Shown here: positions 10,571-28,063 of the stretch, piece by piece
Layout of the letters: the number at the start of each line of letters is the position of its first letter
Position numbering within the stretch: position 1 is the first letter of the stretch
NCBI GenBank assembly: GCA_965372735.1
Contig: CBDVDL010000001.1
Coordinates: 1 to 28,063 of the forward strand
DNA: 28,063 nucleotides
DNA from: an uncultured Alphaproteobacteria bacterium
Lineage (GTDB): Bacteria > Electryoneota > RPQS01 > DYHQ01
Direction of reading: 5' to 3'
Notes under the pieces: model-generated
Databases searched by the model: none
Told to the model about the DNA's origin: nothing
Seen by the model: only the letters and a program-made list of their open reading frames with translations
Position numbers and translations under genes: made by a program

Positions 10571-11776
10571 TCAGGTGCGCGTACTCTTTTTCAAATCCTC
10601 CCAGCACATCACCTGAAAAGGAGATTCGCGGCGTAACTCTTCCGCTTCTTCTTTCGCGAATACGAAAACGACGGCGTCATCCGGCTCAAACAGATTCAAA
10701 TCAATATCGCCGAGATGCCGCCATTCTTTTTCTTCGCGCCAGTTGTTTTCGCCGTGGCCGCAACTTTGGAAAAAGGGTGCGTCCTGCTCCTGCAGGAAAC
10801 GGAATTGATAATCTTCGCCATAGATAACGCATCTTGCGCCGAGCGATTCGAGTTTGCTTCGATTGAGTGCGATGCCATACGGTTCGAAGGTCCATCGAAA
10901 AAGACCGGGCCGCCATTTCACGAGCTTCGCTAATTCCCACGGCAGACATTCTGTCAGCGACACCACACATTTATCTCCGCGAATGAGCTTGTTCGATGCC
11001 ATCAAACGCCGCTGTTTCAGGATTCGTTTCAGCGTGCGAAAACCGCTTCGAGGATAGCCACTTTCTTCTCTATCAAAAGCGGCATAGAAATCAGCCTTTG
11101 TTTCGCCCGGCCAAGGAGCAGTCGTTTTTCTCGTCCAATGCGTTAAAGCTTCCCACGGCAGTACATTGCCTCGCGGATTAGCAATTTCCAAGTTCGAGAA
11201 GGGTGAACGTCCCGTTTCTTTCTTGTAGGGAATTCTGTTCTCTTCATTCACTTTGCTGGAAACTTCGATAGCGGTTTCGAGGTTTCCGCCGGGACGAATG
11301 GAGACAGGATACAGTGCCTCGGCCAGCGCAACGATCCACGCATCGCGTTTTGGAAATTTTGAGAGCGACTTAAAAGAGTTTGGATAATCGTTTGTGAAAA
11401 CAAAGAGTGTTTTGTCCGCGTCGAGATGGAAATCTCGCGCGATTTCGGAAGCAAATTCAGCGGCATCATTCTGCGACACATCCGGGACGACGATGATGAG
11501 TTCGCTGTCGCATGCGGCAGCTTTCCATGTCACCAACTCCCACGTAAACATCCCGACGCTGGAAATAATAACGGCATTGCTTTCCACAAGTTCCTGCACG
11601 AGATGAAGCGTCTTTTGTATCCAATCAGCGCCGGCGTCGGGAAATTTCCCATGACGGGAATTCAGCACCGCTGCCGTGCGCTTATCGAGCAGACTAAGAT
11701 TTCCTATAATCGAAACAGTACCTTCATTTTGAATGGTAAAGGGAGCACAAATCCGGGATAATCCTGCCGATTCCAT
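10571..11776 (-). CDS. Uncharacterised fusion: degenerate DprA/SLOG-like N-terminus plus AbiGi/ART-like C-terminus
   Basis: N-terminal GNLSLLDKRTAAVLNSR and RDAWIVALAEALYPVS echo DprA; C-terminal LTHWTR, VVSLTE, EPYGIAL, VIYG, EEKEWR. ORF clearly coding, function inferred. Confidence 0.6.
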   Translation of the reverse strand: MESAGLSRICAPFTIQNEGTVSIIGNLSLLDKRTAAVLNSRHGKFPDAGADWIQKTLHLVQELVESNAVIISSVGMFTWELVTWKAAACDSELIIVVPDVSQNDAAEFASEIARDFHLDADKTLFVFTNDYPNSFKSLSKFPKRDAWIVALAEALYPVSIRPGGNLETAIEVSSKVNEENRIPYKKETGRSPFSNLEIANPRGNVLPWEALTHWTRKTTAPWPGETKADFYAAFDREESGYPRSGFRTLKRILKQRRLMASNKLIRGDKCVVSLTECLPWELAKLVKWRPGLFRWTFEPYGIALNRSKLESLGARCVIYGEDYQFRFLQEQDAPFFQSCGHGENNWREEKEWRHLGDIDLNLFEPDDAVVFVFAKEEAEELRRESPFQVMCWEDLKKSTRT

Positions 11777-14802: not shown

Positions 14803-17172
14803 ATGCATACAATGAATAAGCTAATCTATTTCGCTAAAATTATCCTCGCCCTTGCGATTCCCATCGCGCTTTTCGGGCAAACGAAACCGTCCACTGTTCC
14901 TCGCAGTTACCTGATGCCGGGAGATTCCCTTTACTATGACCTGTCTTTGAAAAAAGGCGACGTGCTCGAATGGAATCTCTGGCTCGCTCCCACGCTCGAA
15001 GCATCCGAAAAAACCGTGCTCAGTTTTGTCTCGGATGTGGATGGGCAACTTTGGGAGCGGTCGTTTGGGAGCAAAGCTCTGGATTTGCGGGATAAAATCC
15101 GCATCAAAAGCTACGCGCGATACCGCATGACGCTCAAAACGACCGGTCAGCGGGGACGGATGGCAGAACTCAGTGTATGGACGAAGCTGAAAGCATCCCA
15201 TCAGGCTCCCTTTCCCTCGCCGGGCGTACAGCGTTTCGCCGAGATTTTTTCCTCCGGTGATCAGTTTTCCGTCGAATACGAATTTCTCCTGCCGAAGTCG
15301 ATTGGTTTTCAGGAACTCCTTGGATTAGAGCTGTCGCAAGATTTAGTTCATCTGTGGGCGATTACGCCTTTGGGCGATTCACTTCCGGCCACCGCATCTG
15401 TCAAACGCTGGTTCGGCGAAGCAGGCATTCTTTCACTGCGGGAACGAACTCCTTACGGAGGACGGATTACGCTGCGACTGGAGCTCGATGTGGCGGACAA
15501 CGGCGAGTCCATTCTTTTCCTTGCACCCGGTACGCCGCCTCCCGATTGGCTTCCTTCTAAAGCCCGCATGCTCATCACCCGCAAGCACGACCCTTGGAAA
15601 GGCATCATTGTTCCCCCGGTGACCGCTATGGCGGAAACATTGGCCGCGCATCCGGTCGAGTTGCCTCGCGCACCTTATGCCGAGCAAAGCCTTCGAGCGC
15701 GCGGTCTGGATTCTGTCATCGTCGCTGAACTGACAGAGGTTTACACCGAACGGGACAGTCTGTCCGCTGTTCGCCATGCGCGTCGCTCCATGAGTGAAGG
15801 CTACGACACGGAATTCCTTACCGGCAAAAAGGCATTTCTCCCGCCGGATTTGCACGTTGTTCTGACCATACCGCTCACAGGACACCACCCCGAAAAACGC
15901 ATCTCCGGCCGCACTCGTTTGGAATGGTTTGTCGAAGGCGATAAGGAACATACTCGCCATGCTAAACTCTACGAGTGGCGCTACGATGAAGCCCATATTG
16001 CTCGCGCGGACGTGCCGGATGAATTCTTTTGGGATAACCGAATTCTGCCGCTGTACGCGAATCTCAATAGACATTCTGCCGCGAGCCCCAAATCGCCTGC
16101 CACGATTACGTCGCAACCGCTTCCCGACCCTCGTCCATCGACATTTGAGCAATATGGAAAAGAATACATCGATGACAGCCGAAGCGTGCTTGCGCTTTAT
16201 CTGGAAAACAGTTCGAAGGACACGCTCTACCTTGTTTACCATCAGGCGCGCCTGCCGAAACGCACGGTCTTCTCGGCACTGTCACGCTGGCCGATAGGTG
16301 CGCGCTTGGCGGCGGTTATTTTGGGGATTTTCGGTCTTGCTGGTATCGCGGCGATTGTGGAATTGCGCCGCCGCGAACGAAAAAGAAGAAAGCGCTCGGA
16401 AGAATTCGAAGTGGAATTGGAAAAAGCGCGTCAGGTGCAGTTGAAACTGCTGCCGGATGGCCCGATGGAAGCGCAGGGCTTGCAAGTGTACGGCCTGCAC
16501 CAAAGCATGCAGTCGGTCGGCGGCGATTATTACGATTTCTTTGCTCTCGAAGATGGGCGCGTGCTGCTCTGTGTGGCGGATGTCGCGGGGCACGGTTTAG
16601 CAGCGGCGTTGCTGATGTCGAATGTGCAGGCGACGCTTCGCTTAATCGCTCAACCCGGACGGCAACTGACCGAGATTGTTTCTCTTCTGAATCACGAAAT
16701 ATGTCAGCGCACCTCGCCGGAGCGCTTTGTGACATTTCTTATTGCCGAAATATCCGCCGACCGTTCGCTCATTACCATCTGCAACGCCGGGCATAATCCG
16801 GGCTATATCGTCCGCAAATCAGGCAATATCGTGGAGCTGGACGCGGGAGGAGTGATGCTGGGATTCATGGATGTCTTCCCGTTCATTCAGATGGAACATG
16901 GTCTGGACTCCGGCGACCTGATTGTGCTCTACACCGATGGAATTCCCGAAGCCGAAGTCGGTCATGAGGATATGTTCGGCTATGAACGCTTGAAATACTA
17001 CCTGCAGAACCATCGCGCCGAAAACCTGATGAACATCGCACAGGGATTGCTGCGCCGCGTCACGTCTGAGGATGCTCATACGATTGAAGACGACATGGCG
17101 ATTGTCCTCGCGCGCATCGGAACCGCAACCCGACGCGAACCTACCTCGAAAAAGAAAATCAAAACAGCATGA
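14803..17172 (+). CDS. Membrane PP2C/SpoIIE-family phosphatase with large extracytoplasmic N-terminal region
   Basis: Signal-like N-terminus, one TM (IGARLAAVILGIFGLAGIAAIV), VGGDYYD, ADVAGHG, YTDG and DDMAIV motifs. Confidence 0.88.
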   Translation: MHTMNKLIYFAKIILALAIPIALFGQTKPSTVPRSYLMPGDSLYYDLSLKKGDVLEWNLWLAPTLEASEKTVLSFVSDVDGQLWERSFGSKALDLRDKIRIKSYARYRMTLKTTGQRGRMAELSVWTKLKASHQAPFPSPGVQRFAEIFSSGDQFSVEYEFLLPKSIGFQELLGLELSQDLVHLWAITPLGDSLPATASVKRWFGEAGILSLRERTPYGGRITLRLELDVADNGESILFLAPGTPPPDWLPSKARMLITRKHDPWKGIIVPPVTAMAETLAAHPVELPRAPYAEQSLRARGLDSVIVAELTEVYTERDSLSAVRHARRSMSEGYDTEFLTGKKAFLPPDLHVVLTIPLTGHHPEKRISGRTRLEWFVEGDKEHTRHAKLYEWRYDEAHIARADVPDEFFWDNRILPLYANLNRHSAASPKSPATITSQPLPDPRPSTFEQYGKEYIDDSRSVLALYLENSSKDTLYLVYHQARLPKRTVFSALSRWPIGARLAAVILGIFGLAGIAAIVELRRRERKRRKRSEEFEVELEKARQVQLKLLPDGPMEAQGLQVYGLHQSMQSVGGDYYDFFALEDGRVLLCVADVAGHGLAAALLMSNVQATLRLIAQPGRQLTEIVSLLNHEICQRTSPERFVTFLIAEISADRSLITICNAGHNPGYIVRKSGNIVELDAGGVMLGFMDVFPFIQMEHGLDSGDLIVLYTDGIPEAEVGHEDMFGYERLKYYLQNHRAENLMNIAQGLLRRVTSEDAHTIEDDMAIVLARIGTATRREPTSKKKIKTA

Positions 17173-20060
17173 CACCACCACCGAAAATAATGAGCCTAAT
17201 TGAACGCTTCGAAAACAATCGCGAAGCGTATCATTCATCCGGATATAATGAAACGCAACTGCGGCAGGAATTCCTCGATCCATTCTTCAAGGCGCTCGGC
17301 TGGGACGTGGACAATGAACAGGGTTACTCGGAAGCCTACAAAGACGTCATCCACGAGGATCAGATTAAAGTCGGCGGAGGAACGAAAGCTCCCGACTACT
17401 GTTTCCGCATCGGCGGCACGCGCAAATTTTTCGTGGAAGCGAAAAAACCCGCGGTGAATTTAAAAGAAGACGCCAGCCCGGCGTTTCAGTTGCGCCGCTA
17501 TGCGTGGTCGGCTAAATTGCCGCTGTCGATTCTCACCGATTTCGAGGAATTCGCCGTCTATGACTGCCGCGTCCGGCCCGATAAAACCGACAAAGCCTCC
17601 GCTCACCGCGTCATGTATTTCCGGTATGATGATTATCTTGAGAAATGGGATGACATCGTCGGTATTTTCTCCCGCGAGGAAGTGCTCAAAGGCTCCTTCG
17701 ACAAATACGCCGAATCCATGCGCCGCAAAAAAGGCACGGCGGAAGTGGATGCGGCGTTTCTCAGTGAAATCGAAACGTGGCGCAATGAACTCGCGCGCAA
17801 TTTGGCATTGCGCAATAAAGACCTTAGCCAGCGCGAACTTAACTTCGCCGTCTCGCGCACGATTGATAGAATCATTTTCCTGCGCGTGTGCGAAGACCGC
17901 GGCATTGAGCCATACGGTCAGCTTCAAGAGCTCTTAGATAAACAGAAAATATACAAGCAGCTCTTCCAAATTTTTCATCGTGCCGACGAACGTTACAACT
18001 CCGGCCTGTTTTATTTTAAGAAGGAAAAGGAGCGCCCGGGGCCGCCGGATGAACTGACGCCATCGCTCAAGCTCGACGACAAGAAGCTCAAAGACATCAT
18101 CAGGAGCCTCTATTATCCCGACAGCCCCTACGAGTTTTCAGTTCTGCCTGCGGACATTTTGGGACAGGTTTACGAGCAGTTCCTCGGCAAAGTCATTCGC
18201 CTGACAAAAGGCCATCAAGCCAAAGTCGAGGACAAGCCCGAAGTCAAGAAAGCGGGCGGGGTGTATTACACGCCGACCTATATCGTGGACTATATCGTCA
18301 AGCACACTGTCGGGAAGCTGCTCGAAGATAAAACACCCAAGCAAGCGGCGAAACTTCGGATACTCGACCCGGCGTGCGGTTCAGGTTCGTTCCTCATCGG
18401 CGCTTACCAATATCTGCTCGACTGGCACCGCGACTGGTATGTGTCCCATCTCAACAAGGGGCTTCAGCCCCTTGAAACATCAGCAACTGACAAGGGAGTA
18501 GGCAAGGGGCTGAAGCCCCTTGTTTATCAGGTTTCTGGCGGTGAGTGGCGGCTGACGACGGCGGAACGCAAGCGCATTTTGTTGAACAACATCTACGGCG
18601 TGGACATTGACCCGCAGGCCGTAGAAGTGACGAAGTTGTCGCTCCTGCTGAAAGTTCTCGAAGGCGAATCGCGCGACACAATTGAATCGCAGCTTCGCAT
18701 GTTCCGCGAGCGCGCGTTGCCCGATTTGAGTTCGAACATCAAATGCGGCAATACCCTCATCGGCCCGGATTTCTACGAGCACGAGCAGATGACGCTGTTG
18801 GACGACGAGGAACGCTACCGCATCAACGCCTTCGACTGGCAAACCGAGTTCGCCCCCATCATGAAAGCTGGCGGCTTTGATGCGGTGATAGGGAACCCGC
18901 CTTATTTGTATTCGGCTGGGCAGGACTACTTGGACTATTTCAATGAACACTATAGCTTACGACAATATCAAACGGACTACTATGTCTATTTCATTGAATG
19001 TGCGCTAAAGCTTTGTAGGAAAGAAGGCAAAGTTTCATTCATCGTGTCCGACTCATGGACAAATTCAGAGTACTTCTCTGTTATGAGAAATCATCTATTA
19101 ACAAGCCACAAAATAGATGTACTGGCAGTTTTCGGATATCCCGTATTTAAAGCAGCGGCACTTGAGAATAGTATTTTCGTAATCAGCAATCAAGCTTCAC
19201 CTACTCCGATCCCAGTCGAAAAATTTTCGAATCCAAACGAGTACAAAATAGTAAACAGAGTCAATCCGTCTGATGCCGTTGAGCGCGGCTTAATTGATTA
19301 TCGCACGTCATCAAGCATTAGGGCAGTTATTAGCAAGATTGAAAATGGTTCAATTCCGCTCGATCGTATTGTGAATTTGAATCGGGGGATTCATGCTTAT
19401 CGGACAGACGGATACGGCATATCAAAATTCGGCGGTGGGCCGCAGACGAAAAGAGACAAGGATGAAATGTCTTATCATGCGGATTCGCAATTAGATAAGA
19501 CATATTTGCCCGAACTTAAAGGCCGAGATATTCAGAGATACTCGCACAAGAAAAGCGTACGCTTTCTATCGTATGGTCCATGGTTGGCAGAGCCGCGCAA
19601 GCCGGATTTCTTTTTCCAGCCGAAAATCGTTCTTAGAAAGATTCTCGGCAGAAAGTTGCATGGAACATTCTTAGACAAACAGTATGCTTTAGATCAATCG
19701 CTTTACATAGCTATTTCACGCTTAGGTGATAATAGTCTGCTACTTCACATACTCGGAATTTTGCTCTCAACTCTCGGCGCTTGGTATTTGAGAAATAAGT
19801 TTGCAATCTATGACACCCTTTATCCGTGGTATACCAAAAAGCAATTAAGTGCATTCCCAATGAAGGAAAAAGATAATCGCTTGATTAGCATTGTAGAGCG
19901 GATGTTGGAATTGAATCGCGAGCTTCCGAAGGCTAAGACGCCGGATGAAAAGACGCGGCTCGAACGGCAAATCACCGCCACCGACCGGCAGATTGATAAG
20001 CTCGTGTATGAATTGTATGGTCTGACCGAGGATGAGATTAAGATTATGGAAGGAGTGTGA
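17169..20060 (+). CDS. Type IIG restriction-modification enzyme (nuclease, N6-adenine MTase, TRD)
   Basis: PDY...FFVEAKKP nuclease motif, GVYYTP, ILDPACGSGSFL (motif I), GNPPY (NPPY 18894-18905), C-terminal IDKLVYELYGLT helix; ATGA overlap with the phosphatase stop. Confidence 0.92.
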   Translation: MTPPPKIMSLIERFENNREAYHSSGYNETQLRQEFLDPFFKALGWDVDNEQGYSEAYKDVIHEDQIKVGGGTKAPDYCFRIGGTRKFFVEAKKPAVNLKEDASPAFQLRRYAWSAKLPLSILTDFEEFAVYDCRVRPDKTDKASAHRVMYFRYDDYLEKWDDIVGIFSREEVLKGSFDKYAESMRRKKGTAEVDAAFLSEIETWRNELARNLALRNKDLSQRELNFAVSRTIDRIIFLRVCEDRGIEPYGQLQELLDKQKIYKQLFQIFHRADERYNSGLFYFKKEKERPGPPDELTPSLKLDDKKLKDIIRSLYYPDSPYEFSVLPADILGQVYEQFLGKVIRLTKGHQAKVEDKPEVKKAGGVYYTPTYIVDYIVKHTVGKLLEDKTPKQAAKLRILDPACGSGSFLIGAYQYLLDWHRDWYVSHLNKGLQPLETSATDKGVGKGLKPLVYQVSGGEWRLTTAERKRILLNNIYGVDIDPQAVEVTKLSLLLKVLEGESRDTIESQLRMFRERALPDLSSNIKCGNTLIGPDFYEHEQMTLLDDEERYRINAFDWQTEFAPIMKAGGFDAVIGNPPYLYSAGQDYLDYFNEHYSLRQYQTDYYVYFIECALKLCRKEGKVSFIVSDSWTNSEYFSVMRNHLLTSHKIDVLAVFGYPVFKAAALENSIFVISNQASPTPIPVEKFSNPNEYKIVNRVNPSDAVERGLIDYRTSSSIRAVISKIENGSIPLDRIVNLNRGIHAYRTDGYGISKFGGGPQTKRDKDEMSYHADSQLDKTYLPELKGRDIQRYSHKKSVRFLSYGPWLAEPRKPDFFFQPKIVLRKILGRKLHGTFLDKQYALDQSLYIAISRLGDNSLLLHILGILLSTLGAWYLRNKFAIYDTLYPWYTKKQLSAFPMKEKDNRLISIVERMLELNRELPKAKTPDEKTRLERQITATDRQIDKLVYELYGLTEDEIKIMEGV
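18455..18522. repeat. Two in-frame palindromic repeats inside the RM gene
   Basis: CAAGGGGCT-TC-AGCCCCTTG (18455-18474) and AGGCAAGGGGCT-GA-AGCCCCTTG (18500-18522), read as KGLQPL and KGLKPL. Confidence 0.8.
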
Positions 20061-20091
20061 TTAGTATGCAGCAAAAAACATATCTGGGGAG

Positions 20092-21645
20092 ATGCTAATG
20101 ACTGAGCAACCAATGTCGTTTCAAGCGCTCGCAAAAAAAATCTCATCTTCTCTAAGCAAAGGGACCTACCAAGAAGCTCTCGTTGCACTGCGAAATTACG
20201 AGGCGACACACCCAAATGATCGGAACCTATGCTACAACAAACACGCCGTTCTCATTGATATTGGTTTCGGATTACGGGATTTCAGAGTCGTGCAAGAAGG
20301 AGTAGAATCTGGAGAGCAACTCTTGCAAGACCAATCTTATCAGAATCGCGCAGCGAATATCAAGTATAATTTGGCAAACGGATACTCCTGTCTTCACAAA
20401 TTAGCAAAACCGGACGAGTTGGCAGCGATTCCTCAGAGTGAGAATCTGCAGGTTGCAAAGTCCTACTATCGACATTCACTTGTCGTTGTTTCTGAAACAG
20501 CTCTCGAATTGAAGAAGCAAATCCTTGTGAATCTCGCGAACTGCTACAACATGTTGGGTCGCGGTGTTGAAGCAATTGATCTTTACGAAGAGGCATTGGA
20601 AATCGATCCAGCTTTTTCGATGGCCACTGCAAACAGAGCGGTGGCGCTTAAATACTTCGCAGATATCTCTGGCGAGTATAGGGCATCGATATACATTGAG
20701 GCGTATCAAGCTATTAAAGCAATCTTGGAAAATAGTGATTTATTAGAAATAGGGGGTTATGAGGCAAGAACAGCTTTACAGGCAGAATTGAAGAATATCG
20801 AATCCAAATTTGAAGATCCTGGAGTGTTAAGTCAGAATATCGCATATCCTAAGTACGGCGATAGCCGATTCTCGAAGTTTGAAAAATTCTATGTAGAATA
20901 CTGCATACAGGAAAGGCTCTTCCTCAATTTCCATATTCATCAACGGCATTCCAGAGCGGCAATAATAGATCCAATCTTCATAAGTATGATTACTCCGGTT
21001 GATGATAATGTCCGGTTCTATGACCTTGCGAAACGCATAAACCAAATCAAAGAGAACTTTGTCGTTGCACGGTTGATATTGGTTGAATCACAATACGGGA
21101 AGAAGGCGTACGACAACATAAGCAAGAGAACTACATATGTGGACAGCCTCGACTACTCAAGGTTTGACATTTATGGAGGCTTGCTTAAGTCAGCCTATGA
21201 GCTGAGCTATAATGTTCTGGACAAAATAGGCTGCTTTATCAATGACTATTGTGAATTAGGAGTCAAAGAGGAAAAGGTGCATTTCACTTCGATTTGGCAG
21301 GAAGGAAACCAAATGCGAAACAAGCTTCTCAATACCAAAAATGTCAGTCTTTATGCTCTATACGATATTTACAGAGATTTCAAGTCAGGGTATAACGAAC
21401 AGATACGCCAAATTAGACATGCCCTTACCCACCGAAGGCTTATTGTTTATGATCTCTTACGGCCTGGTCAACAGCTAGATCCCAGTTATGAGATTCTCTA
21501 CGACTCACTGGTGGAGCAAACGACGAAATTGATGAGATTAACCAGAGCGGCGATTATCTACCTTATTAACTTCGTGAATGAAAACGAAAAGAAGAAAGTC
21601 AAAGATAAGGAAGTGGTCGTTCCATTCCAAGTTTTCACAATGTAA
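20092..21645 (+). CDS. TPR plus LA2681-like HEPN domain protein (putative RNase effector)
   Basis: N-terminal TPRs (ILVNLANCYNMLGR); AYELSYNVLDKIGCFINDY; RHALTH = Rx4H HEPN motif (21415-21432). Start may be ATG 20098 (GGGGAG SD). Confidence 0.8.
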   Translation: MLMTEQPMSFQALAKKISSSLSKGTYQEALVALRNYEATHPNDRNLCYNKHAVLIDIGFGLRDFRVVQEGVESGEQLLQDQSYQNRAANIKYNLANGYSCLHKLAKPDELAAIPQSENLQVAKSYYRHSLVVVSETALELKKQILVNLANCYNMLGRGVEAIDLYEEALEIDPAFSMATANRAVALKYFADISGEYRASIYIEAYQAIKAILENSDLLEIGGYEARTALQAELKNIESKFEDPGVLSQNIAYPKYGDSRFSKFEKFYVEYCIQERLFLNFHIHQRHSRAAIIDPIFISMITPVDDNVRFYDLAKRINQIKENFVVARLILVESQYGKKAYDNISKRTTYVDSLDYSRFDIYGGLLKSAYELSYNVLDKIGCFINDYCELGVKEEKVHFTSIWQEGNQMRNKLLNTKNVSLYALYDIYRDFKSGYNEQIRQIRHALTHRRLIVYDLLRPGQQLDPSYEILYDSLVEQTTKLMRLTRAAIIYLINFVNENEKKKVKDKEVVVPFQVFTM

Positions 21646-21725: not shown

Positions 21726-21975
21726 CCCCTACTTCAGTAGGGGGATAACAGGGGGTTTAACGGTCTCTTCACACGGCGAGAAATCATTCCGGGCACGCAT
21801 AGCGCTGCGGGCGATTCATCAGGGTCGGCTGTAAGCAGCCAACACCGCGGCTCCCTACCGGCGGGCTCCGTCCCGTCGGCGCGACACCATGAATTGCATT
21901 GTAGGGGCGGACCCACGTGTCCGCCCGCGACGGATATACAAAAATAAACGGGCGCACACGCGGGAGCGCCCCTAC
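21726..21975. repeat. Cluster of REP-like palindromes, including an inverted GTAG-type REP doublet
   Basis: CCCCTAC/GTAGGGG hairpin (about 21726-21743); GGTCGGCTG/CAGCCAAC unit ending CTCCCTAC (21823-21858); GTAGGGGCGGACCCACGTGTCCGCCC (21901-21926) with an inverted near-copy at 21950-21975. Confidence 0.75.
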
Positions 21976-22014: not shown

Positions 22015-23175
22015 ATGTCCCATCCATTAAAACCCCGCCATGCGCACCGGCTGAATGCGCTGCCGCCGTATCCGTTCGCGGAGCTTGAACGCAAGATATC
22101 CGAAAAGCAAGCGCGCGGAGACGATGTGATTAATCTCGGCATCGGCGACCCGGATTTGCCGCCGCCGGATTTTTTCACCGAATCACTCCAGCGACACGCC
22201 GCCGATTCTGATGCGCATCTCTATTCGACATCGCAAGGAAATCCTGACGTGCGAAAGGAAATCGCACGTTTTTTTCAAGGCCGCTTCGGTGTCGAATTGA
22301 ATCCGGACACTCAAATCTGCGTTGTCATCGGCGCAAAAGAAGGCTTGGCGAATATAGGCCGCGCGTATGTGAATCCTGTAGAAGAAGTCGCCGTGCCGTC
22401 GCCGTCGTATCCGGTTTACGGCGCGGGCGTGGCGACACTTTGCGATGCGCATGTGCGGACGCTTCCGCTGCGCGAAGAAGACGGTTTCTTGCCGAATCTC
22501 AAGGAAGCCGAAGGCGTGCGGATGGCGTTTTTCAATTATCCCAATAATCCGACCGGAGCGATTGCGCCGGAATCTTTTTGGAAACAGCTCGGCGATTTCT
22601 GCGACACGCACCCGGAAACGATTGTCGTGCACGATAACGCCTACAGCGAGATGACGTTCGACGGTTATGTCGCGCCGTCACTTTTGCAATTCACTCCGAA
22701 CGCGCTAGAGATGCATTCGATATCGAAAGTCTTCAACGCGACGGGCTTCCGCATCGGTTTTGCTGTGGGGCGCGAAGATTACATCGCCGCGTTGGTCAAA
22801 GCGAAATCGCAGGTAGATTCCGGAGCGCCGCTGATGATTCAACGAGCGATGGCGGATGGACTCGCGCGCTACCGGGGAGCAACGGCGCCGCCTGAAGTGG
22901 ACGCCATGCGCAAAACGTACGGCGAACGGCGCGCTTTAGCCGAAGAAGCTCTCGAAAAAATGGGTTTGAAAGTCACGCGTTCACCCGCGACGTTTTATGT
23001 GTGGGTGCATATCGGAGCAGACGAGATGCCTTTCGCCAACGCCGCTCTAAATAAAAATGTTATCGTCACGCCCGGTCGCGCTTTTGGTTTGTTAGGCACG
23101 GGCTTCATCCGCCTCGCGCTCACACAACCTCTAAGGCGCATTCAAGAAGCGATGGAGCGATTGGCGACGATATAA
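22015..23175 (+). CDS. dapL: PLP-dependent class I/II aminotransferase, LL-diaminopimelate aminotransferase-like
   Basis: LPPYPFAEL, INLGIGDPDLPPP, NYPNNPTG, HDNAYSE and SISKVFNATGFRIG (PLP lysine). Substrate inferred from the N-terminal signature and nearby dapF. Confidence 0.75.
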   Translation: MSHPLKPRHAHRLNALPPYPFAELERKISEKQARGDDVINLGIGDPDLPPPDFFTESLQRHAADSDAHLYSTSQGNPDVRKEIARFFQGRFGVELNPDTQICVVIGAKEGLANIGRAYVNPVEEVAVPSPSYPVYGAGVATLCDAHVRTLPLREEDGFLPNLKEAEGVRMAFFNYPNNPTGAIAPESFWKQLGDFCDTHPETIVVHDNAYSEMTFDGYVAPSLLQFTPNALEMHSISKVFNATGFRIGFAVGREDYIAALVKAKSQVDSGAPLMIQRAMADGLARYRGATAPPEVDAMRKTYGERRALAEEALEKMGLKVTRSPATFYVWVHIGADEMPFANAALNKNVIVTPGRAFGLLGTGFIRLALTQPLRRIQEAMERLATI

Positions 23176-23178
23176 AAA

Positions 23179-23204
23179 GGTCGGCTGCAAACAGCCGACA
23201 CCGC
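23179..23204. repeat. Second copy of the GTCGGCTG palindrome
   Basis: GGTCGGCTG-CAAA-CAGCCGACACCGC, closely matching 21823-21847. Confidence 0.7.
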
Positions 23205-24662: not shown

Positions 24663-24752
24663 TACACTGTCTTTATTCTTACAATTTACTATTATTCTGT
24701 GTAGTGAAATCCTCTTTCGGTGAAATTCAGCGTGACGTAGTTCTATAATAAT

Positions 24753-26855
24753 ATGTCTGTCCTATCACCAACAACATCCCTGAAACAACAAGCTCTGGAA
24801 TTACTGCGGCGTTCTTTGGACGACCCGCAGGCGACGTTTCGCGACGGTCAATGGGAAGCGATTGACGGTTTGGTGAGCGACAAAGCGCGGCTGCTTGTCG
24901 TGCAGCGAACCGGTTGGGGCAAGAGCGTCGTTTATTTTTTAGCGACGCGGCTTCTGCGCGATAAAGGCTCCGGCCCGACGCTGCTCATCTCGCCATTGCT
25001 TGCTCTGATGCGAAATCAAATTCTCGCGGCGGAACGTATCGGCGTGATTGCGGAAAGCATCGATTCGAGCAACACGGATGATTGGGCGCGCGTGCGAACA
25101 GAGCTTCATACAGGAAAGATTGATTTGCTGCTCGTGTCGCCGGAAAGACTCGCCAACGAGGCGTTCCGCGAGGATGTGCTGATGCCGGTGGCCGAGCGCG
25201 TTGGGCTTTTGGTCGTGGACGAAGCGCATTGCATTTCCGACTGGGGACACGATTTTCGCCCGGACTATCGCCGCATCGTTCGCATTTTGCAAGCGCTGCC
25301 GCGAAACATTCCGGTGCTGACCACGACTGCAACCGCGAATGACCGCGTGGTGGAAGATGTCGTAAATCAACTCGGCGAACTCCGGGTTGTGCGAGGGCCA
25401 CTCGCGCGAGCGAGCCTGCGCTTGCAGAATATTTCGCTGCCGAGTCAAGCCGAACGTTTGGCGTGGCTGGCCGAGCAGGTTCCAAATCTGCTCGGAAGCG
25501 GGATTATTTATACCCTGACGGTGCGGGATGCTCAGCGTGTTGCCGAGTGGCTTCAGCGGCGCGGGATTAATGCGCACGCTTACTTTGGAGATTTGGAAAC
25601 TTCTTCCCGCAAAGCTCTCGAAACGAAGCTGCTGAAAAATAAAATCAAAGCCCTCGTCGCAACGCCAGCGTTGGGGATGGGATTCGACAAACCTGATTTA
25701 GGATTTGTTATTCATTTTCAACGACCGTGCTCGGTGATTCACTATTACCAGCAAGTAGGACGAGCCGGTCGCGCGCTCGAAACAGCTCACGCGGTTTTGT
25801 TGGGCGGACGGGAAGACGATGAAATCGCTGACTATTTCTTGCGAACATCTTTCCCTCCGGAAGCGCACGTGAAATACGTGCTAAAAGCTCTCAAGAAAGA
25901 AAACAAAGGCCTTTCCATTACGGGTCTTCAGAAGAAACTCAATCTCTCTTTCACACAAATCAAAAAGGTACTGAGAGCGCTTGCCGTCGAACATCCGTCG
26001 CCCATCGCCAAGTTCGAATCGAAGTGGTATCGCACACCTGTTCGTTACACGCCAGACAAACGAAAGATCGAGCGGCTGATTCAGGTGCGGCGGCGGGAAC
26101 AGGAGCGCATGCGAGAGTTTTTGCACTCGTCGGAATGCTTGATGGCCTTTCTTCAGAAAGAATTGGATGATCCCAATCCTGAACCGTGCGGTCGCTGTGC
26201 GGTGTGCTGCGGCGCTCCGTTGCTGCCGGAAAATTATTCATCCGCCACGGTAAACGACGCGATTAAATTCCTGCAGCGATGTTACCAGAAATTCGAGCCG
26301 CGCAAATTTTGGATTGCGGATTCGCTAAGCGCACACAAATGGAAAGGACGCATTCCGGAAGAATTGCGGGCGCAGGAAGGATGGGTGCTTTGTTTGTGGG
26401 GAGACGCCAGCTGGGGAACGCTCGTTCGGCGCGGAAAACAGGATGGCCGTTTTGATGATGAACTCGTGACAGCCGCTGCGGAAATGGTGCAGCAACAATG
26501 GAAACCGAATCCACCGCCCACATGGGTGACATGTGTTCCATCTCTGCGTCACACCAAACTCGTCCCGGATTTCGCGCAGCGACTTGCGGCAGAATTACAT
26601 CTGCCGTTTATCGCGTGCCTTCATCAAAAACGTCGCGTCCCTCCACAAAAAGAAATGGCGAACAGTTACAAGCAAGCACAGAATTTGGCAGGCGTTTTCA
26701 AAGTAGCCTCCAAACAAATCCGACCGGAGCCGGTTCTGCTCGTGGATGATATGGTGGATTCACGCTGGACATTTACCGTCGTTTCCGCGCTGCTTCTCGA
26801 AGTAGGCAGTGGACAGGTTTACCCGCTCGCGCTGGGGATGACAACCGCCGGATAA
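24753..26855 (+). CDS. RecQ-family helicase with C-terminal PRTase (ComF-like) domain
   Basis: QRTGWGKS, DEAHCISDWGHDFRPDY, ALGMGFDKPD, YYQQVGRAGR, Zn-site CGRCAVC, then VLLVDDMVDSRWT PRPP-loop-like motif. Confidence 0.92.
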   Translation: MSVLSPTTSLKQQALELLRRSLDDPQATFRDGQWEAIDGLVSDKARLLVVQRTGWGKSVVYFLATRLLRDKGSGPTLLISPLLALMRNQILAAERIGVIAESIDSSNTDDWARVRTELHTGKIDLLLVSPERLANEAFREDVLMPVAERVGLLVVDEAHCISDWGHDFRPDYRRIVRILQALPRNIPVLTTTATANDRVVEDVVNQLGELRVVRGPLARASLRLQNISLPSQAERLAWLAEQVPNLLGSGIIYTLTVRDAQRVAEWLQRRGINAHAYFGDLETSSRKALETKLLKNKIKALVATPALGMGFDKPDLGFVIHFQRPCSVIHYYQQVGRAGRALETAHAVLLGGREDDEIADYFLRTSFPPEAHVKYVLKALKKENKGLSITGLQKKLNLSFTQIKKVLRALAVEHPSPIAKFESKWYRTPVRYTPDKRKIERLIQVRRREQERMREFLHSSECLMAFLQKELDDPNPEPCGRCAVCCGAPLLPENYSSATVNDAIKFLQRCYQKFEPRKFWIADSLSAHKWKGRIPEELRAQEGWVLCLWGDASWGTLVRRGKQDGRFDDELVTAAAEMVQQQWKPNPPPTWVTCVPSLRHTKLVPDFAQRLAAELHLPFIACLHQKRRVPPQKEMANSYKQAQNLAGVFKVASKQIRPEPVLLVDDMVDSRWTFTVVSALLLEVGSGQVYPLALGMTTAG

Positions 26856-26864
26856 AATATTAAT

Positions 26865-27920
26865 ATGAACACTCACATTCTAAGCACAGACACGCAGGCA
26901 ACGCTTTTGCTCTGCGGCCAATTCGGAAACGACACGACGACCATCCGCGCGTTGACGCTTTCCGAATTCAACAAATTCGAACAATGGCTCGCTGATGAAG
27001 ACTTAAGTCTATCCGATTTAATCGAGACAGATTCAGCGCAAATAATCGAAAAACTCCGGAACAGCGGCTTTGACCCGGAACGATTCGGCAGCTTGCTCAG
27101 TCGCGGAAGTGCGCTGGCGATTGCCGTCGAACAGTGGACGCAGACAGGTTTGTGGATACTCGGCCGCAACGACGAAATTTATCCGCCGTGTTTGAAAGAA
27201 CGGCTACAGAAAAAAGCGCCTGTCGTTCTTTACGGCGCGGGAAATCAATCGTTTTTATCACGCGGAGGACTCGCCGTCGTCGGTTCGAGAGACGCTGATG
27301 AAGAAGCGCTCTCTTTCGCGCGTACAGTCGGGGAAGTCTGCGCGCAGCAAGACATCCAGATTATTTCCGGTGGAGCGCGCGGAGTGGACATCGCCGCTAT
27401 GTCAGGCGCACTCGAACAAGGCGGCTCGGCCATCGGAATACTGAGCGGGAATCTTGCTCAGGAAATCGTTTCGGAGAAGAGTCGAATGTGGATTTCTGAT
27501 GACCGGCTCGTACTGCTCTCTCCCCATCCTCCACGCGCCGCCTTCAATGTTTGGAACGCGATGGAACGGAACAAACTTATTTACGCGATGGCAGATTATG
27601 CGCTTGTGGTCAGCGCGGAATTGGATAAGGGAGGCACATGGCAAGGCGCTTTGGAGAATGTGAAACACGGCTGGACGCCGCTGTTTGTCCGCGACGATGA
27701 ATACGCGCCGAAAGGAAACCGGGGACTCATCAAGCGCGGCGGCATCGCTATCGAACCGAGCGCGATTCATCCTGACGTAGCACTTCTGGACAAACTCAAA
27801 GAGCTCGCAGTGGCATGGAATACGACTCGAACCTCGAAACTCGAAAACAAGCAGCAATCGATTCTGTGGGACAAACCAGAGCCAAATAAGAAACCTAAAC
27901 GAAAAAAGAAATCCACCTAA
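26865..27920 (+). CDS. dprA: DprA/Smf (SLOG) family protein
   Basis: LAVVGSR, ISGGARGVD, AMERNKLIYA, KGGTWQGA motifs; starts 9 nt after the helicase stop. Confidence 0.9.
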   Translation: MNTHILSTDTQATLLLCGQFGNDTTTIRALTLSEFNKFEQWLADEDLSLSDLIETDSAQIIEKLRNSGFDPERFGSLLSRGSALAIAVEQWTQTGLWILGRNDEIYPPCLKERLQKKAPVVLYGAGNQSFLSRGGLAVVGSRDADEEALSFARTVGEVCAQQDIQIISGGARGVDIAAMSGALEQGGSAIGILSGNLAQEIVSEKSRMWISDDRLVLLSPHPPRAAFNVWNAMERNKLIYAMADYALVVSAELDKGGTWQGALENVKHGWTPLFVRDDEYAPKGNRGLIKRGGIAIEPSAIHPDVALLDKLKELAVAWNTTRTSKLENKQQSILWDKPEPNKKPKRKKKST

Positions 27921-27941: not shown

Positions 27942-28063
27942 ATGGATCTTTCCAAAATCATTGACAATCTCTACAAGAACTTTTTCATGAGAGACCTGCT
28001 TTCATTTTTTACTCCCGGAGTCATCTTGGTATATACAATCCTACTAAGTCACTACGATTGGTG
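27942..28063 (+). CDS. 5' part of a probable membrane protein, truncated by the window edge
   Basis: GAGGA SD, ATG 27942, open to the end: MDLSKIIDNLYKNFFMRDLLSFFTPGVILVYTILLSHYDW. Confidence 0.55.
   Translation, partial: MDLSKIIDNLYKNFFMRDLLSFFTPGVILVYTILLSHYDW

Follow-up and report, generated by a model that had tools for sequence, protein, structure and literature searches.

A probable complete psyrT-psyrA (rqlH-rqlI) operon in an uncultured bacterial lineage

Gene and domain architecture of the pair

We analyzed a two-gene locus at positions 24753 to 27920 of a 28,063-nucleotide stretch of DNA (hereafter the window; contig CBDVDL010000001.1 of assembly GCA_965372735.1). Two complete open reading frames (ORFs) lie on the + strand where an earlier note on this DNA had placed them; the first encodes a 700-aa protein that joins a RecQ-like helicase to a phosphoribosyltransferase (PRTase) domain, and the second a 351-aa DprA-like protein. 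The genes are co-directional and separated by 9 nt, counted from the stop codon of the first to the start codon of the second (Table 1). The larger protein matches the PADLOC profile for PsyrT (PDLC03928) with an E value of 3.8e-290 and 962 bits over residues 11-698 (profile positions 5-685 of 689), and the smaller one matches that for PsyrA (PDLC03927) with an E value of 9.7e-114 and 379 bits over residues 1-334 (profile positions 1-324 of 398). The ShosA profile also detects the smaller protein, with a score much below that of PsyrA (E 2.9e-22, 77 bits). Further, the larger protein is 52% identical over its full length to an RqlH-type (RecQ-family) protein of E. coli, and residues 6-293 of the smaller are 43% identical to the DprA-like partner in the same E. 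coli pair. There is neither a premature stop nor a frameshift in the two genes, and the residues K57, D156, and the acidic loop residues of the toxin (see below) are all intact. Given the full-length profile matches, the RqlH domain plan, the identity to the E. coli pair, the intact hallmark residues, and a conserved gene order, the locus is very probably a complete psyrT-psyrA (rqlH-rqlI) operon that belongs to PsyrTA/RqlHI, a known family of toxin-antitoxin and anti-phage pairs. The pair is an already known and named system in a new host and not a new system.

The N-terminal part of the toxin carries the complete RecQ motor that the earlier note had described, with a Walker A motif (GWGKS, residues 54-58, including K57), a DEAH box (156-159), and motif VI (QQVGRAGR, 333-340), and Pfam identifies DEAD and Helicase_C in it. 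The best sequence match in the PDB is E. coli RecQ (1OYW; E 9e-56, chain residues 16-338). A second aligned stretch, toxin residues 440-514 against chain residues 358-430, pairs C462, C479, C482, and C485 with the zinc cysteines of RecQ, so the zinc site of the same note is likewise borne out. In this alignment, E. coli RecQ has no equivalent of approximately 70 toxin residues that separate the motor from the zinc module. In the full-length AlphaFold model (pLDDT 89.5, pTM 0.84), this linker has helices at residues 370-382, 389-395, and 400-411 and strands at 418-421 and 424-427; as modeled, the three helices and beta hairpin look like a winged helix. A long helix (436-457) starts at the end of the linker and runs into the zinc module. 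Neither an RQC nor an HRDC domain is found in the toxin by Pfam search, as expected from the earlier reading of a protein with no HRDC-like tail. The helicase core and zinc cysteines therefore align with those of canonical RecQ, whereas the missing RQC and HRDC domains, the additional linker before the zinc module, and the PRTase C terminus set the toxin apart. It passes the NCBIfam recQ_fam subfamily model (253 bits; cutoff, 220) and fails both the recQ equivalog TIGR01389 (275 bits; cutoff, 640) and PRK11057 (217 versus 1015). The equivalog score suggests that the gene is not a RecQ orthologue, despite there being no separate canonical recQ that we could find.

The Pfam PRTase match in the toxin is weak and lies below the cutoff (E 0.007). 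Structure prediction nevertheless confirms the PRTase fold of the C terminus, at the level of a model: the domain (residues 495-700, 206 residues) is predicted with a pLDDT of 95.8, and each of the 50 PDB matches listed by Foldseek is either a type I PRTase or a protein with the PRTase fold (APRT, PurF, phosphoribosyl pyrophosphate [PRPP] synthetase, and ComF). The best TM score among these listed matches is to H. pylori ComF (7p0h; TMq 0.59), with ShosT (8zvb) at rank 50. The PRPP loop, VLLVDDMVDSRWT, spans toxin residues 661-673 and includes D665, D666, and D669. Loop conservation was read from alignments of 40 to 80 homologues. D665, D666, and W672 are invariant in 40 homologues, and D669, S670, and T673 are at least 90% conserved. 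DMVD, starting at D666, aligns with DIVD of the related E. coli protein, and the motif mutated in RqlH of E. coli F11 is also DIVD, starting at D663; by this alignment, D666 falls at the position of F11 D663. The earlier note had called this loop atypical. Judged from the alignments, DD.xDS.WT is instead a signature of the PsyrT family and no peculiarity of this copy.

DpdF, the helicase of the Dpd deazaguanine DNA-modification system, was considered for the toxin and rejected. The NF041063 score is 146 bits against a cutoff of 550, and the PADLOC matches to DpdF, though many, cover shared helicase or PRTase parts only and are far weaker than those to PsyrT. Family scans of the window ORFs named no gene of the DpdA-E or G-K type.

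Pfam DprA (PF02481) covers residues 92-271 of PsyrA with an E value of 1.2e-36, in agreement with the DprA-family gene reported at this spacing before. PsyrA, which was aligned to the DprA structures 3UQZ and 4LJR, carries the motifs GSR (R142) and RN (R235); among 41 homologues, R235 is invariant and R142 is at least 90% conserved. Residue counting against H. pylori DprA suggests that these correspond to two of the three arginines that bind single-stranded DNA (ssDNA) in DprA and ShosA (PMC12961424). The third position is Ala in PsyrA, inside the family-conserved GGTW.GA.E motif. The protein fails the dprA equivalog TIGR00732 (92.6 bits versus a cutoff of 191.15). A predicted complex of the PRTase domain with PsyrA scored 0.00; it was run without controls and is evidence neither way.

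Table 1. Coordinates of the probable psyrT-psyrA operon, its predicted domains, and an upstream promoter-like site
Feature	Position	Strand	Basis
psyrT (rqlH), 700-aa toxin, RecQ-like helicase-PRTase fusion	24753..26855	+	PADLOC PDLC03928, AlphaFold
RecQ-like superfamily 2 (SF2) ATPase core, two RecA-like lobes, residues 1-350	24753..25802	+	Pfam DEAD, Helicase_C; 1OYW alignment
RqlH-specific linker, residues 351-440	25803..26072	+	Secondary structure of full-length model; gap in RecQ alignment
Four-cysteine zinc-binding module, residues 441-494	26073..26234	+	Second 1OYW aligned stretch
ComF-like type I PRTase domain, predicted toxic module, residues 495-700	26235..26852	+	AlphaFold, Foldseek
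psyrA (rqlI), 351-aa DprA-like antitoxin, short form	26865..27920	+	PADLOC PDLC03927
DprA/SLOG Rossmann-like domain, PsyrA residues 92-271	27138..27677	+	Pfam PF02481, E 1.2e-36
Promoter-like site, GTGAAA, 18 nt, TATAAT	24720..24749	+	10/12 consensus match, weak evidence only

Conservation across bacteria and within the host lineage

A scan of one genome per species identified at least 593 genomes with a relative, and the best 80 were examined. These relatives are 48-63% identical and come from Cyanobacteria, Desulfobacterota, Verrucomicrobiota, Chloroflexota, Acidobacteriota, Actinomycetota, Pseudomonadota, and others; spread over so many phyla at approximately 50-63% identity suggests horizontal spread. 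Among the best 80, 76 loci have at least 1 kb of downstream sequence, and a PsyrA homologue lies immediately downstream on the same strand in 73 of them, mostly after a gap of 6-45 nt. The two genes thus form a strongly conserved pair. A Nostoc plasmid and, within a type I restriction-modification (RM) operon, an E. coli IncF plasmid also carry homologous pairs; this E. coli allele occurs in 53 of 5426 complete genomes. On the E. coli plasmid NZ_OX030731.1 (37352-40869), the order is hsdM, hsdS, rqlH, rqlI, hsdR, a type I restriction operon. On the E. coli chromosome NZ_CP124405.1, an IS3-family element sits within the pair, and the remnant is annotated separately as "ComF family protein."

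The host bin comprises 2.19 Mb in 390 contigs and is 87.6% complete. Both remaining genomes of the genus encode full-length PsyrT, at 91% and 94% identity, and so does a second genus of the same family, at 80%. In a further genus it is split across contigs (81%), and a search of the fifth family genome did not find it. Outside the family, 5 of 24 genomes of the same order carry it, at 60-68% identity. Within the genus, the order dapF, type IIG RM gene, aminotransferase, alpha/beta hydrolase, psyrT, psyrA is conserved, and the aminotransferase gene is still near the pair in the other family genus. In another family, none of the window's neighboring genes lies near the pair in the three genomes with a readable downstream flank; in a fourth, the contig ends at the toxin gene, leaving the downstream side unreadable. 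These comparisons give the picture of what appears to be an accessory element that is stable within one family. Contig C172 of the genome carries a separate dprA, whose product passes TIGR00732 (249.5 bits versus 191.15) and is 25% identical to PsyrA. By these scores, PsyrA is not the housekeeping DprA.

The PsyrTA/RqlHI reading and its competitors

The architecture seen here has been described before. RqlH of M. smegmatis, a species without RecQ, has 3'-5' translocase and helicase activity and consists of an ATPase (1-346), an RqlH-specific linker, a four-cysteine domain (435-499), and a ComF/PRTase-like C-terminal domain, with no HRDC (Ordonez, Unciuleac, and Shuman 2012; PMC3378886). It is close in length to the toxin (691 versus 700 aa) and shares its domain boundaries, whereas in mycobacteria and most Gram-positive bacteria rqlH is a solitary gene that lacks the RqlI antitoxin present here. 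In E. coli F11, RqlH lacking RqlI causes an SOS response, filamentation, and loss of viability (Russell and Mulvey 2015; PMC4670107). This toxicity depends on the PRTase domain and on D663 of the PRPP loop, mutation of which abolishes it, and helicase-dead mutants are still harmful (PMC4670107). In the same study, RqlI coprecipitates with RqlH only if the PRTase domain is present, and its helix-turn-helix (HTH) tail is dispensable for antitoxin function (PMC4670107). Papers citing Sberro 2013 credit that work, too, with showing the toxin-antitoxin nature of the pair. The Millman 2022 preprint lists PsyrTA (= RqlHI) among the toxin-antitoxin pairs that defend against phage and could not obtain a psyrA deletion (not transformable). 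Rousset et al. cite PsyrTA/RqlHI pairs as well.

The locus shares with these pairs (P. syringae PsyrT-PsyrA and E. coli F11 RqlH-RqlI) the gene order, the tight spacing, the toxin plan, the DD.xDS.WT loop, and a DprA-like antitoxin with an N-terminal region and a Rossmann-like domain. It differs in its uncultured host lineage, in being a chromosomal pair that is syntenic within the host's family, and in the short form of its antitoxin. ShosTA, to which the earlier note had related the locus, likewise combines a PRTase-fold toxin with a DprA-like antitoxin; it is a defense of the abortive-infection type with DNA-damage and filamentation phenotypes. The N-terminal domain of ShosT is pyrophosphatase-like, however, whereas the toxin here has a 350-residue RecQ-like motor in its place, and ShosA does not bind ShosT directly (type IV), whereas RqlI coprecipitates with RqlH. 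The functional class proposed in the earlier note, a PRTase effector restrained by a DprA-like protein, fits the literature; its claim of novelty does not hold.

The steps of a mechanism have been shown for homologues and are carried over to this copy by inference. PsyrT would act as a 3'-5' DNA helicase through its RecQ-like motor, linker, and zinc module. Its ComF-like PRTase, if unrestrained, would be genotoxic, leading to SOS induction, filamentation, and loss of viability in a manner that needs the acidic residues of the PRPP loop. PsyrA made from the same transcript would neutralize PsyrT, in E. coli via an association that requires the PRTase domain, and the PRTase may be kept in check both by PsyrA and by the helicase activity of the toxin itself. 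By analogy to ShosTA, phage infection could lift this restraint in one of two ways: the DprA-like protein and the helicase could become engaged by phage ssDNA or replication intermediates, or host shutoff could deplete a labile antitoxin. The freed PRTase would then be expected to disturb nucleotide or DNA metabolism and so abort the infection.

Several observations weigh against assigning the locus to a PsyrTA defense pair. In a native-host E. coli study, protection was detectable in K-12 only for RM, PD-T4-3, and PD-T7-1, and PsyrTA gave a growth defect with no detectable protection (10.1101/2024.12.20.629700). PsyrA lacks the C-terminal HTH of the long forms (residues 320-400 of F11 RqlI) and ends in a lysine-rich tail. 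The genes that directly flank the pair are metabolic, not defense genes. Within the family, the pair appears to be vertically inherited, at a fixed position beside the aminotransferase gene and with an identity (91-94% within the genus and 80% in another genus) similar to that of the aminotransferase (75-93%). Canonical recQ was found neither in the 87.6% complete bin nor in another genome of the genus that is 96% complete, and a search of the bin for a second recQ returned a single match, a 24.5-bit helicase-C fragment on contig C53. Finally, the host lineage is uncultured and known only from metagenome bins. As for the HTH, it does not define the family, since it is dispensable in E. coli RqlI and missing from 17 of 68 complete homologues (short forms, <375 aa), about a quarter.

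A housekeeping role in DNA repair keeps a small chance, given that searches of the genome and its close relatives turned up no canonical RecQ. In this reading RqlH would substitute for RecQ, a role proposed for it in mycobacteria, and its DprA-like partner would mediate recombination and not serve as an antitoxin. The bona fide helicase activity of the M. smegmatis protein in a species without RecQ, the ability of ShosA-type DprA proteins to promote recombination and bind RecA, and the synteny of the pair within the family, where it diverges about as its housekeeping neighbors do, are consistent with this role. It does not account for the full conservation of the toxic PRTase module and its acidic loop or for the toxicity of the same architecture in E. 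coli without its partner; moreover, the genome already has a real dprA, the distribution at the order level is patchy with differing contexts, and the family extends over many phyla, suggesting horizontal spread. A related idea, unlikely in our view, is that PsyrTA has been domesticated in this lineage, with the helicase doubling as a RecQ-type repair helicase and the short, HTH-less antitoxin, its lysine-rich tail binding DNA, permanently taming the PRTase. It is prompted by the missing canonical RecQ and by the retention of the pair at one chromosomal position across genera and, if true, would present a defense module in transition to a housekeeping role.

Among the listed PDB matches, ComF is the closest in structure to the PRTase domain, and the partner is DprA-like, which could point to a module for DNA uptake in natural transformation, an analogue of ComFA-ComFC-DprA. 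We consider this very improbable: family scans of the window ORFs found no competence genes near the pair, the genome has its own dprA, homologues reside on plasmids and in an E. coli type I RM operon, and in experiments homologues behave as a toxin-antitoxin pair. As to the proposal of the earlier note, that of a ShosTA relative armed with a helicase and different from every named system, the DprA-like antitoxin and PRTase fold are indeed common to both (the ShosA profile match and the weak structural match to ShosT at rank 50). However, the fits to the PsyrT and PsyrA profiles are far better and span the full length, descriptions of the architecture date from 2012 and 2015, its naming and testing as a defense followed in 2022, and the ShosTA papers themselves list PsyrTA/RqlHI as a sister system. 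With the profiles and the literature already refuting it, this proposal retains next to no probability.

A RecQ-PRTase fusion followed by a DprA-like gene should accordingly be read as PsyrTA/RqlHI. The architecture had been put forward as one without a characterized name; PsyrTA is in both PADLOC and DefenseFinder, which would label the pair automatically, and the locus carries little weight as a discovery. In the literature searched, no paper devoted to the mechanism or structure of PsyrTA turned up, and the PDB copy searched contains no PsyrT structure, with plain RecQ as the top sequence match. Since no member of the family has a solved structure in that PDB copy, any intact PsyrTA copy is a possible object of study; the present one is intact and well modeled and offers no special handle.

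Surroundings of the pair in the window

The earlier note had placed the pair amid RM, HEPN, and hydrolase genes rather than competence genes. Those genes are indeed present: a type IIG RM enzyme (PADLOC E 4.9e-186) and a TPR protein with an LA2681-like HEPN domain are both encoded 3-7 kb upstream, and an aminotransferase and an alpha/beta hydrolase gene are further neighbors. An AbiC/AbiP-like gene lies at 1267-2109 in the same window. The earlier description is accurate, but the defense island around the pair is a loose one. The window contains no tRNA genes, and neither direct or inverted repeats bracketing 24753-27920 nor an Rfam element there was detected; with no mobile-element borders, nothing in the window points to a recent insertion.

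No Shine-Dalgarno-like sequence is present ahead of psyrT (24700-24752) or psyrA (26853-26864). The TATAAT hexamer of the promoter-like site ends 3 nt before the psyrT ATG. Promoter and terminator scans gave counts no higher than those in shuffled sequence, and TATAAT is therefore not promoter evidence. The lack of a Shine-Dalgarno sequence and the position of TATAAT 3 nt before the ATG suggest that a leaderless mRNA or Shine-Dalgarno-independent initiation may apply.

Directly downstream, a further ORF (27942-28063) opens 22 nt past the psyrA stop and is cut off by the end of the contig. Over its first 40 residues it is hydrophobic and resembles a membrane protein. In the same-genus genome this place is taken by a 3-methyladenine glycosylase (Tag) gene, so the junction just downstream of psyrA varies. 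Upstream, between dapF and the aminotransferase gene, two genes of the window are missing from the same-genus genome, one for a SpoIIE-like phosphatase (14803-17172) and the TPR-HEPN gene (20092-21645). The type IIG RM enzyme of that genome is only 67% identical to that of the window, versus 86-96% for the flanking genes, and the GC content of the HEPN segment is lower (0.42-0.46). The region 14803-21645 looks like a small variable defense slot (RM/HEPN).

Elsewhere in the window, neither Pfam nor PADLOC gives a match, at the thresholds applied, to a 401-aa ORF on the minus strand (10571-11776). Rfam PYLIS_3 (mttB pyrrolysine insertion sequence) matches 2495-2594 on the minus strand, inside an MttB-family gene, at 38.8 bits against a gathering threshold of 38. 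Two copies of a 37-nt palindromic element, 78% identical to each other, bracket the aminotransferase gene (21812-21848 and 23168-23204). The core of the palindrome is GGTCGGCTG..CAGCCGAC, and its second copy doubles as a terminator-like hairpin on the minus strand; the element is possibly a REP-like repeat of the host genome.

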